Source: an uncultured Candidatus Marinamargulisbacteria bacterium
GTDB taxonomy: Bacteria > Margulisbacteria > Marinamargulisbacteria > SXXA01 > JAHFDB01
Reading direction: 5' to 3'
Assembly (NCBI GenBank): GCA_964517775.1
Contig: CAZFCP010000013.1
Location: forward strand, 397 to 64,396
Length of the DNA: 64,000 nucleotides
Shown: positions 4,027-11,657 of the stretch, piece after piece
Layout of the letters: each line of letters begins with the position of its first letter
Numbering within the stretch: the first letter of the stretch is position 1
Notes under the pieces: model-generated
What the model was told of the DNA's origin: nothing
Database searches by the model: none
The model's input: the letters and a program-made list of their open reading frames with translations, nothing else
Made by a program: the position numbers and the translations under genes

Positions 4027-7000
4027 TCAGAAACCATGAAAGGATTGGGGATGTATGACAATCGTACTAGTAATCTGAGACATAACGCCTTGTCTTAAAC
4101 GAGGGTGCAGAATCTGCTGTGCAAGTTCAGTAGCAAAATCCCTATCCCAGTTTAAAATCACAGTATTAAGAAGCTGCCATTGCCTGTCTGACAAAGGAAC
4201 CGCTTCGCCCGATTTTGGTAAAAAGATAAACACTGGCCTATTTGACGTAAAAACAGAGTTGCCAGGATCTGTTAAACGTTGCCTCTCGAGTTGGTTAAAC
4301 TCTCTTACTTTGAGTGGAAATGAATAGCAAAGTCCAACACAATCTGACGGATCCGTCCGCTGTAAAAAACGGGCAGGATGTTCTTCTGTGGGAAAAACTC
4401 TGGATGGCTTAATCCGGCTTAAAAGATAGTTGTGTTTATCCATTTTATCCATAACAACCAACTTCTCAAAAGCTCTTTTAACATGAAATAAAAGCATCTC
4501 TTTTTGCTGGGATGATGACCAACCTTCCAGCTGTATCAGACCTGACTCTATTCCCTCACAGATTTTTGCATGATAGCCATTTAAATCCTTGTCTGAAATA
4601 GCGTTTACATCAAAACCAATCCAGGCTTTATATTGTCTTAATATCTCTCTTAGCACCTGTTTACTGGAGACATTCGGAATACGGCCCTGACGTCTATAAA
4701 GTGTTTCCTGTAATTTTAAAGACATAGTCTGAGGATCGTCATACACCCGTGTAGATTTCAATTTGGATTTAAACGGCTTTATAAGACGGAATGGAAACCG
4801 GTTACGCTCAAAGTTATCTTTACGTCCATACTCAAAACCAGCCTGATTAACAACATAAACAGCCCCCGGACTAGAAAATGAAACCGTGGGTAAGTCTGGA
4901 TGCAGCATAAACATCTCACTAAGACGCAGTCTTTTTTGGCGAAAAACATCAACTATCATTGCCCTATCCTCTATTACGCGAATGGCTTTATAGGGCGATA
5001 AATGATAACGAAGTAATAAGGCAACACGTTCAGAAAGTCGCCTGTCTTCAGCCTCTGAAAATTGAAATTGAGTATAGCCAGACAGACCCTTTAGTACATC
5101 ATCAGACAGGTTACCCGCACATAGTATGGATTCAACCAGCTTTAATCCAAAACCAGTATCTGGGTGCCCGGTCATAAGGCGATTTACGTGGGATGACGTA
5201 ACAAAATGTGGGGCACACAATTCGACAGCCTCGTCTATTTCCGATGCTGAAGGTGCTATATTTCTGGAAGAAAAAGAATTATTATTAGAGCTTGAAATAT
5301 GAAACGCTGTCGGAACATTTAAAATTTCACATAGGACACCATAAGCTACGGCAGCTTTTCTTAAAGCCAGACTCAAATCAGAGGTCTGCATGTATTGGTC
5401 AAAAAGAGTCGTCATGAGGGTTTCAGCATCGGTATTCTGTCCATTTAACACAGCCTTTATGGATGCAATCACTGTATCCTGAATATGAATACGAGGATCA
5501 AAACAGGCAAGACTGGCTGTATCTTTAACGGTTTTTGCACAGGAAAGCAAACGGTGCTTATCTGGTCCTGGCTGTCTTAAAAAGGCTTCTCGATCGAAAC
5601 ACCGCAGCAGTGTTTTGCAGTCATCAGAACGGTGTATGGACGTCCATTCCAATAGAAGGGGCGTCTGACCTTCGACACCTGAAGACAGAATAGATTCAAG
5701 TAATACCCCCGAGCTTTTCATCCAGTCCAGCAACTGTACTTCACTATCTGCCGGCACCCGACATGCCTGTGTTTTTTGTCCATAAAGTGTTGACACTATA
5801 ACAGTACAAACCTCAGGAAAACGCGTCTGTGGAAACCAAGTCAAAAGAGACATCAGGGATGCGATGTCATGTTTAACAATATAATACATGATGCTTTTGG
5901 AACTTAAGGCCCAATCTACACGTTTTAACAAAAACAGAGCTAACCGGGCAGGATGCGATACCCAATCCTTTAACGTTTCAATATGTCTGCCAGTCATACA
6001 ATGATCATAAGGGTTTAAAACATCATAAGGTGCCTGACAGGCCAAGAGTGATTTAAAAACAGTTTCGGCTGAATCAGAACCCCGTTTTCTTATCTGACAA
6101 TAGGAAAAAACGGTTCTAATACCTGTAATCTGCACCGGTGGATTTGCATCTAAAACACGCTCAATAGACTCAAAATTTTCTAAAATCTTATCCACCAGTT
6201 TTAAATCAACAAAAGGACGAATATCCCAAAGTTTGGATCTAAATTTTTGAGACGCACTTCCTGGTATTGGGATTAGTTTTTCCAATTCAGCTAAAAATCC
6301 CAGAAAAAGAAAGCTATTTCGCTGACCTTGAAATGATTGAGGTACTAAAGGTGCCGTATTACCCAAAGCCATCCATAGTGTAGATAAACACATATTCAAC
6401 GATTGTATGGAATACGGAGTCTGAACAAAAACCTGAGCCATGGCCTCAAAGGTAGGGAAACTCAATAGCTGGTCTACAGATCCGGTTAAACAAGGTAAAG
6501 CAGGTTCGTATCGGCGCAATAACTTGTCTCTGATCGTCTCTGGATCAGCAGAAGGACAGGAGTATTCGTCAACAAACCATCGTTCGATAAGCACTCTGGC
6601 TTCAGGAACCGTATCTTTGGCCTTCATCAGAAGAAGCTCGATATCATGACCATGATTCTGGTATAACTCGAGGATAGTTTTAATCAGTCCAGCCTCATGA
6701 TCTGATATGGCCTTATATATTTTTGACATCATCACCTGAGTATCAAATAACGAATACATAGGCAAATTGGATAAAGAAAAGGTATCTTGAACAGCATGAC
6801 TGAAAAATCCGGGGATAAAGGATTTTAAACCTGAAACTTCATGAACATTATTTCCAAGAACAGCCTTTTCACAACAGTCAAACACACTGCTCATCATCTT
6901 GTCTGTTTCCATAATCTGCTGAAAACGAACCATCATTCCAGCATTACAGTTTTGCCAGTCACTTGGGAATACCTCCATTTTTTCACGGGCCATATCCATG

Positions 7001-11657: not shown

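Follow-up and report, generated by a model that had tools for sequence, protein, structure and literature searches.

Among described systems, the chlamydial Inc proteins provide one of the closer parallels to the gene pair reported here, which lies on the minus strand of contig CAZFCP010000013.1 and whose members we name B864 and A1679 after the lengths, in amino acids (aa), of the proteins they encode. The stretch of DNA analysed as a whole, termed the window below, comprises 64,000 nucleotides (nt), positions 397 to 64,396 of that contig. Inc proteins are lineage-specific orphans that carry paired hydrophobic segments, are often large and helical, and are found in host-associated bacteria that encode eukaryote-like proteins close by. 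In these respects they resemble the pair, although the resemblance is one of function alone. However, neither sequence nor fold similarity connects the pair with Inc proteins or their co-encoded effectors, which come from another phylum. Inc proteins are recognized by two membrane spans separated by a short loop, and residues 326-350 and 377-400 of B864, with a basic loop of 26 residues between them, are, like the 36-residue stretch at residues 781-816 with its central Pro-Gly, compatible with this arrangement but not specific for it. Furthermore, Inc systems use type III secretion, and no such genes are found in the 64-kb window.

The LpxB-containing operons for lipid A synthesis represent a second system worth comparing, given that a gene of the GT19 (LpxB) family is located directly 5' of the pair. 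However, this gene scores far below the lpxB cut-off, and the pair never accompanies a GT19 gene elsewhere. A third comparison is with the placozoan symbiont ‘Ca. Ruthmannia eludens’, an intracellular bacterium that resides in a vesicle-filled vacuole (PMC6784892) and in which canonical secretion systems are reported to be absent (PMC6784892 supplement). Its genome differs from the window in guanine plus cytosine (G+C) content (37.2% versus 41.2%), as well as in the genes that flank a two-gene cassette common to both, and on these grounds an origin of the window in R. eludens itself was rejected.

We propose that B864 and A1679 constitute a lineage-specific two-gene module, the products of which might form a membrane-anchored complex that serves the cell surface or a host interface rather than core envelope synthesis. 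We judge the probability of this reading to be somewhat short of even, at roughly 0.38. It is supported by a Shine-Dalgarno sequence and a promoter-like site that belong to B864 itself, by the extreme lineage specificity of both proteins, and by a base composition that resembles that of the surrounding genes.

The gene pair and its junction

The pair occupies a total of 7.6 kb and is organized as follows.

11658..11727, minus strand: gap of 70 nt located 5' of B864, containing a promoter-like site (CTGAAA, 18 nt, GATAAT) and, 5 nt before the ATG, the Shine-Dalgarno sequence AAGGTGA
9063..11657, minus strand: B864, the upstream gene, an ORF whose 864-aa translation is a predicted polytopic membrane protein of no known family
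9063..9066, minus strand: ATGA overlap of the B864 stop and the A1679 start, read directly from the sequence
4027..9066, minus strand: A1679, the downstream gene, an ORF encoding a soluble-looking, apparently mostly helical orphan of 1679 aa

An earlier inspection of this DNA (hereafter the sequence-only reading) had described two very long open reading frames (ORFs) of 1679 and 864 aa with overlapping stop and start codons. Both the frames and the overlap are confirmed by the sequence, and the 864-aa gene is the first of the two on the minus strand. The same reading considered the block to be the largest uncharacterized one in the window, which is true of the two genes jointly but not of a single ORF, because a repeat protein of 1977 aa is larger.

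On the coding strand, B864 ends with ...CGA CGA CCT ATA TGA, and A1679 begins one base earlier than this stop codon with ATG ATA TCT.... A stop located 13 codons 5' of the ATG closes the A1679 frame, and the B864 frame runs into many stops beyond its TGA. Because the one frame is closed upstream and the other is rich in stops downstream, the junction must be regarded as a clean stop/start overlap and not as a split gene. A recent frameshift that divided a single fused gene is therefore ruled out. Moreover, random codons at 41% G+C would include about 6% stops, as computed from base composition, and open frames of 864 and 1679 codons are therefore maintained genes rather than products of chance. 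Folding of the junction RNA, examined for a structure able to conceal the start of A1679, did not exceed that of shuffled sequences (z = +0.7). As the sequence-only reading had anticipated, the natural expectation from the ATGA overlap is that B864 and A1679 would be translated in a coupled manner from one messenger RNA.

The composition of the pair is ordinary for its surroundings. Codon adaptation to the housekeeping genes of the window is 0.71, and the G+C content at third codon positions (GC3) is 0.33-0.35 compared with a window mean of 0.37 (standard deviation 0.07), such that the pair is not a fresh transfer. A consensus scan also revealed a terminator-like hairpin at the end of the GT19 gene, before B864. 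This hairpin and the Shine-Dalgarno and promoter-like sites around the B864 start are consensus pattern matches only.

Searches for relatives

The protein collection searched holds about 15 billion public proteins, of which a word index covers 5.8 billion clusters. Residues 480-1679 of A1679 were additionally compared with 1.84 billion cluster representatives in an exhaustive HMMER pass. No family in Pfam, NCBIfam, PADLOC or PHROGs matches B864 or A1679 at E<=0.1, and among PDB sequences the best E-values are 0.78 and 0.59 for the two proteins, which we do not regard as matches. The Walker A ([AG]xxxxGK[ST]), HExxH and GxSxG motifs are absent from both. Thus, the sequence-only reading was correct that the proteins carry no recognizable motifs: no family is found, no PDB match is better than an E-value of approximately 0.6, and catalytic motifs are missing. 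Confident homology to a characterized family was likewise not found for either protein.

The word-index search returned only A1679 itself when this protein was the query, and revealed no homologue of B864. B864 failed to retrieve even its own entry because it has been clustered (P0002/P0003) under an unrelated 28-aa representative, a database artefact that hides this protein from all searches based on representatives. In the exhaustive HMMER pass, residues 480-1679 of A1679 matched only A1679 and one metagenomic protein of 478 aa, called P0005. A scan of a genome collection with A1679 yielded no match, and neither did searches of phage and plasmid records (tblastn) and of viral contigs with the pair. 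There are no paralogues among the 44 proteins of the window and no internal repeats in A1679 or B864. We also found no integrase, no flanking repeats and no meaningful direct DNA repeats around the pair. To the extent that these collections can reveal relatives, B864 and A1679 are true orphans, apart from the C-terminal module of A1679 described below.

Two more familiar identities were considered and rejected. The proteins do not appear to be giant NTPases of the STAND or AAA type or components of anti-phage defence, given that they have no Walker A motif and no PADLOC match. Likewise, the pair is not recognizable as cargo of a phage, plasmid or integrative element, as there are no matching records, no integrase or repeats, and a GC3 within the window range.

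Segments and predicted topology of B864

Hydrophobicity analysis of B864 reveals four segments of interest.

11394..11456, minus strand: H1, residues 68-88, weak (Kyte-Doolittle maximum 1.73) and containing two Arg
10608..10682, minus strand: H2, residues 326-350 (Kyte-Doolittle maximum 2.02)
10458..10529, minus strand: H3, residues 377-400 (Kyte-Doolittle maximum 2.02)
9210..9317, minus strand: H4, residues 781-816, 36 residues long with a central Pro-Gly, either one long span or a hairpin

The presence of several hydrophobic segments had been noted previously, and this observation stands. However, the ‘C-terminal pair’ of segments proposed by the same reading proves to be a single stretch of 36 residues that has a central Pro-Gly and is followed by 48 residues. 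The H2-H3 loop (residues 351-376) has 26 residues and is basic, with five Lys or Arg (19%). The net charges of the successive parts of the protein alternate: +4 for the N-terminal tail, -10 for loop 1, +3 for loop 2, -14 for loop 3 and +1 for the C-terminal tail. By the positive-inside rule, this alternation fits an inner-membrane protein of four spans whose N-terminus is inside. B864 might therefore be an N-in four-pass inner-membrane protein with two acidic domains on the periplasmic side, one of about 237 residues and the other of about 380. An envelope location is plausible from this predicted topology, although not from the identity of the neighbouring genes.

The larger acidic domain (residues 401-780) contains five of the 11 cysteines of B864. 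In addition, the protein has 12 N-X-S/T sites, compared with 5.6 expected, between residues 296 and 747 (window 9417..10772), and nine of the 12 are located in residues 401-780. Within this same domain, residues 731-748 of B864 (window 9414..9467; TTPLKDTLRQLQQLNV) match residues 1194-1211 of the 1977-aa repeat protein (TTPLKDIQRQLYGLDV) at 12 of 18 positions, a similarity that is not significant alone (E 0.4).

A canonical signal peptide is absent from both B864 and A1679, and no C-terminal domain of type IX secretion cargo, or other C-terminal sorting domain, from Pfam or NCBIfam matches either protein. Identification of the pair as type IX cargo was rejected on these grounds, and also because as many as 48 residues follow H4.

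A1679 and its C-terminal module

The sequence-only reading described A1679 as soluble-looking and helical, and our findings agree with this description. No segment exceeds the usual membrane threshold, there is no signal peptide, and no catalytic motif is evident, including any P-loop, zinc-protease or serine-hydrolase signature. The AlphaFold2 single-sequence model of residues 480-1679 contains helices throughout, with a predicted local distance difference test score (pLDDT) of 37.5. The protein could thus be mostly helical, although the confidence in this model is low.

One part of A1679 has a detectable relative.

4168..4719, minus strand: residues 1450-1633 of A1679, the C-terminal module, to which all detected homology (P0005) is confined

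The match to P0005 extends over about 185 residues and has an E-value of 2.7e-7 for the whole library of 1.84 billion sequences. The identity across the module is 28-29%, with BLASTP giving 29% over 196 columns, and a local alignment scores 25.8 standard deviations above shuffled sequences. Both proteins carry the core motif RQG[RK]IPNVSSKxVLRxI, in which G[RK]IPNVSSK forms an identical core. The N-terminal 235 residues of P0005 show no significant similarity to A1679 (z 1.7). P0005 is a hypothetical protein encoded on a 21-kb metagenome contig (JACCDG010257564.1, GCA_013558375.1) of 41.5% G+C, a value similar to that of the window. It is far shorter than A1679 (478 versus 1679 aa), and is surrounded by ordinary bacterial genes without a B864-like neighbour. 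No family in Pfam, NCBIfam, PADLOC or PHROGs and no PDB sequence matches P0005, and a metagenome scan with an alignment of the two module sequences recovered the P0005 contig again and nothing else.

Structural modelling provides few additional clues. AlphaFold2 assigns the module an overall pLDDT of 54 and a helical bundle at residues 1449-1550, approximately, with pLDDT values of 60-87. Foldseek comparisons of the module with PDB and BFVD gave no significant match, and the best E-value of the module profile against PDB is 0.76. The best Foldseek row is the tyrosine recombinase Cre (E 0.3, probability 0.10, template modelling (TM) score 0.15). This fold was rejected for the module, whose two-sequence alignment has neither HxxR nor a conserved C-terminal Tyr.

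A peptide shared by the two proteins

B864 and A1679 have short peptides in common.

11601..11624, minus strand: motif copy 1, B864 residues 12-19, LPLVPQSF (PLVPQSF at 13-19)
6331..6354, minus strand: motif copy 2, A1679 residues 905-912, APLVPQSF (PLVPQSF at 906-912)
9360..9383, minus strand: motif copy 3, weaker, B864 residues 759-766, APLYPESF, 15 residues before H4
4039..4050, minus strand: PQSF near the A1679 C-terminus, residues 1673-1676 (...HPQSFHGF), three residues from the end, not significant alone

The heptapeptide PLVPQSF is identical in copies 1 and 2, and the two coding sequences differ by four synonymous codon changes, such that they do not represent a recent DNA copy. A 7-mer shared between the two proteins occurs in 0.6% of shuffles (p about 0.006), and a match such as copy 3, at five or more of seven positions, occurs in 7% (p about 0.07). 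Sites of the form P[QE]SF number four in the pair and zero in the other 42 proteins of the window. However, the count of three or four PQSF sites was rejected as a strongly non-random feature, given that 31% of shuffles match three occurrences in a family-wise test of 4-mers. These observations suggest that PLVPQSF might be a common binding or recognition site, whereas the other PQSF-type copies serve only as leads.

The neighbouring genes

Three genes complete the co-directional string to which the pair belongs.

12826..13857, minus strand: ManC
11728..12819, minus strand: GT19/LpxB-family gene (PF02684, E 9e-11)
3229..4002, minus strand: DUF481 outer-membrane protein (E 1e-21), with a signal peptide, of a beta-barrel family

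The order is ManC, GT19, B864, A1679 and DUF481, with gaps of 70 nt between GT19 and B864 and 24 nt between A1679 and DUF481. Thus, the neighbours are as the sequence-only reading had described them, with ManC and an LpxB-like gene upstream and an outer-membrane-protein-like gene downstream. From this arrangement, the same reading took an envelope, surface or secretion role for the pair to be plausible, but a tie to envelope biogenesis is not supported. The GT19 gene exceeds the Pfam threshold for LpxB, but scores 34.5 bits against an NCBIfam lpxB cut-off of 190. Furthermore, GC3 values of 0.46-0.48 for ManC, GT19 and DUF481 contrast with the 0.33-0.35 of the pair.

Further evidence comes from relatives of the cassette, which we located by searching with the GT19 protein and inspecting the contigs of the matches. 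ManC followed by GT19 proved to be a conserved and self-contained two-gene cassette in five independent, Margulisbacteria-like relatives (L001, L083, L084, L085 and L086), with identities of 36-63% for GT19 and 46-70% for ManC. The closest is L083 (GT19 63%, ManC 70%), which has a G+C content of 41.2% and, as in the window, the transfer RNA (tRNA) gene tRNA-Arg(CCG) upstream. L086 comes from a single cell of Candidatus Marinamargulisbacteria, SAG AAA071-K20. In R. eludens, the cassette is represented by annotation as pegs 1187 and 1186, followed by CarA, and the GT19 counterpart is annotated as related to the cyanobacteria-type LpxB, with the true LpxB encoded elsewhere at peg.472 (PMC6784892).

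No relative of A1679 or B864 is present at the cassette in any of these six cases. Instead, the genes that follow it are all unrelated to the pair: a toxin-antitoxin system and a peptidase, flagellar genes, cytochrome c assembly genes, TilS/ArgS, or CarA. A separate scan of the genome collection with ManC examined 80 loci, among which only L001 has retained the cassette and none has the pair. Given that the cassette is conserved without the pair, B864 and A1679 would have been gained in one lineage, at a position between the cassette and the gene for DUF481. Accordingly, the co-occurrence of the pair with manC and the LpxB-like gene, which had been put forward for phylogenetic profiling, is seen in none of the five relatives and not in R. 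eludens. The position of the pair does not support any link to sugar-nucleotide or lipid A chemistry.

Several other features of the locus deserve mention. The cassette itself (window 11728..13986, and five loci) hints at a glycolipid step linked to GDP-mannose. The genes for tRNA-Ser(TGA) (1961..2048) and tRNA-Arg(CCG) (13910..13986) flank the block from VIT1 to ManC. Upstream of tRNA-Arg, L083 carries a type II CRISPR-Cas system at 1439..5853 (Cas9, Cas1 and Cas2), at the place where the window holds the 1977-aa repeat gene. L086 has, at 1..3880 on its minus strand, an ORF of 910 aa that abuts another of 2990 aa, both without a Pfam match and 3 kb from the cassette. This arrangement is reminiscent of B864 and A1679, in that a protein of about 900 aa and a giant one, neither of known family, are tightly paired within 3 kb of the same cassette. 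However, the L086 ORFs differ from the pair in strand and in the side of the cassette on which they lie, have no tblastn similarity to A1679 or B864, lack hydrophobic spans, and are beta-rich in composition.

Lineage and signs of host association

The named relatives of the GT19 protein at 38-40% identity are exclusively Marinamargulisbacteria, a group to which an intracellular symbiont of an animal also belongs (PMC6784892), and the source lineage is probably related to Margulisbacteria. Several genes in the window encode proteins that suggest a life in contact with a eukaryote. A 589-aa protein (20140..21909, plus strand) has a eukaryote-like ubiquitin-hydrolase domain of the USP/UCH type that exceeds the Pfam cut-off (PF00443, E 8e-7), and its gene has a very low GC3 of 0.22. 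A 309-aa protein (56044..56973, minus strand) carries a C-type lectin domain (E 7e-6) and is followed by three small ORFs of no known family. Another region (43801..51352, minus strand) encodes a 2207-aa surface protein with immunoglobulin-like (Ig-like) and fibronectin-III domains and, after it, a 305-aa protein that weakly resembles PorQ of type IX secretion (22.7 bits, where the cut-off is 220). The 1977-aa protein (14068..20001, minus strand) consists of about 20 tandem helical units of roughly 90 residues and a tail rich in Glu and Arg. Its unit pattern is ...AI.E.E..IR.AC.GT.A.PD.VV..M..G..L.EAV...HY...., and it has weak matches to Pfam T2SSF but no true family. Taken together, the USP/UCH-like, C-type lectin, Ig-like and 1977-aa repeat proteins suggest that the source lineage is probably host-associated. 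No secretion-system genes were recognized within the 64-kb window.

Interpretation

On the reading that we favour, a single transcript from a promoter upstream of B864 would yield both proteins, and ribosomes that finish B864 would restart on A1679 at the ATGA overlap. B864 would then enter the inner membrane of the bacterium itself with four spans and with both ends in the cytoplasm, thereby placing its two acidic domains in the periplasm. A1679, which has no export signal, would remain in the cytoplasm and, as a large helical scaffold without enzymatic activity, would bind to the cytoplasmic parts of B864, which are short and basic. Among these is the N-terminal tail, which bears PLVPQSF, as does A1679. 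A physical complex of the two proteins is plausible. The module would have been added 3' of the conserved ManC-GT19 cassette in one lineage, where it might serve a surface or host-interface task specific to that lineage.

Certain observations weigh against this proposal. H1 is weak and contains two Arg, and the topology would shift if this segment is not a span; H4 might be a hairpin instead of a single span. Under the four-span topology, motif copy 3 (B864 residues 759-766) would be periplasmic and thus apart from the other copies. The description of A1679 as a helical scaffold derives from weak secondary-structure calls, composition and a model with a pLDDT of 37.5. B864 and residues 1-479 of A1679 were covered by the word-index search alone, and the lineage affinity was drawn from the relatives of one gene, GT19. 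In addition, the DUF481 gene begins only 24 nt 3' of the pair, such that a genuine envelope machine is conceivable.

An alternative that we consider somewhat unlikely is that the two proteins are exported to act on a host. In the manner of chlamydial Inc proteins, B864 would reside in the membrane of a host-derived vacuole or in the host plasma membrane by way of two hairpins (residues 326-400 and 781-816), with its soluble parts in the host cytosol. A1679 would be a co-delivered effector or scaffold, and PLVPQSF-type peptides would bind one partner, either of the host or a chaperone. The spacing of H2 and H3, which are 26 residues apart, and the hairpin-like character of H4, with its central Pro-Gly in 36 residues, are in keeping with this model, which would also place every copy of the motif in one compartment. 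Effectors are typically large and extremely lineage-specific, eukaryote-like USP/UCH-like and C-type lectin proteins are encoded nearby, and the sole homologous piece is a C-terminal module in an otherwise unrelated protein, as occurs in effector families. However, a loop of 26 residues within a total of 75 is at the long end of the range for Inc-type bilobed domains, the loop charges of B864 fit ordinary insertion into the inner membrane, and the significance of the motif is modest and was judged after the fact. Furthermore, the window has no recognized secretion system, and the host-associated Marinamargulisbacterium that has been studied is reported to be without canonical ones (PMC6784892 supplement).

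We regard it as rather improbable that B864 and A1679 belong to a trans-envelope or envelope-biogenesis machine and operate together with ManC, GT19 and DUF481, for example to handle a mannose-containing glycolipid. The co-directional string with its gaps of 70 and 24 nt invites this explanation, B864 is plausibly an inner-membrane protein with large periplasmic domains, and DUF481, a member of a beta-barrel family, carries a signal peptide. Even so, five relatives and R. eludens possess the cassette but not the pair, and a core envelope function would be expected to be conserved, yet the pair has no relatives. The difference in GC3 between the pair and its three neighbours also counts against a common machine, as do, more weakly, the terminator-like and promoter-like sites between GT19 and B864.

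Far less probable is the notion that both proteins are precursors that are cut or sorted at the bond between [QE] and S in their P[QE]SF sites, which would free a 17-residue N-terminal peptide and a C-terminal anchor from B864 and would split A1679 at residue 910. The protease family called 3C-like prefers Gln or Glu before a small residue, as these sites offer. The four sites are confined to the pair within the window, two of them are near a terminus (B864 16 and A1679 1673), and one precedes H4 by 15 residues. However, three occurrences of PQSF are unremarkable by the shuffling test above, no protease gene was recognized adjoining the pair, and the tail beyond H4, at 48 residues, exceeds the length of known C-terminal sorting signals.

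Equally improbable is that the pair acts as a selfish element, in defence or as a toxin, or that it is a decaying remnant without present function: although the pair is absent from relatives and is located in a variable region beside tRNA-Arg(CCG), with tRNA-Ser 2 kb past the other end, nothing in PADLOC, PHROGs or the phage, plasmid and viral records matches it, integrase and flanking repeats are lacking, its composition is native-like, and its 2543 stop-free codons could not persist without selection. The probabilities of these readings do not add up to one, and the balance is assigned to none of them.

A bolder version of the lineage-specific module that we favour can be envisioned, although we consider it a long shot. 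At the heart of an interface apparatus of a kind not seen before, in an uncultivated relative of Margulisbacteria, B864 might be a membrane conduit or anchor served by the giant cytoplasmic platform A1679, with PLVPQSF as a docking or processing site, and the C-terminal module that A1679 shares with P0005 might mark a small new family of clients or adaptors.

Implications

Lineages that have been poorly sampled commonly contain giant genes without relatives. As far as its sequence permits us to judge, the pair is new only by the absence of a detectable relative, and no new mechanism is shown. One lesson from the locus is that a co-directional gene string is here no sign of shared function, given that the cassette is conserved without the pair. 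However, if B864 and A1679 do form a working membrane complex, then they would represent two protein families and one shared module that have no relatives among about 15 billion proteins. The lineage in question is a candidate one, sister to the Cyanobacteria, and no means by which its host-associated members address their hosts is known. If our proposal is true, the pair would offer a concrete and testable starting point for learning how such bacteria build a host or surface interface.

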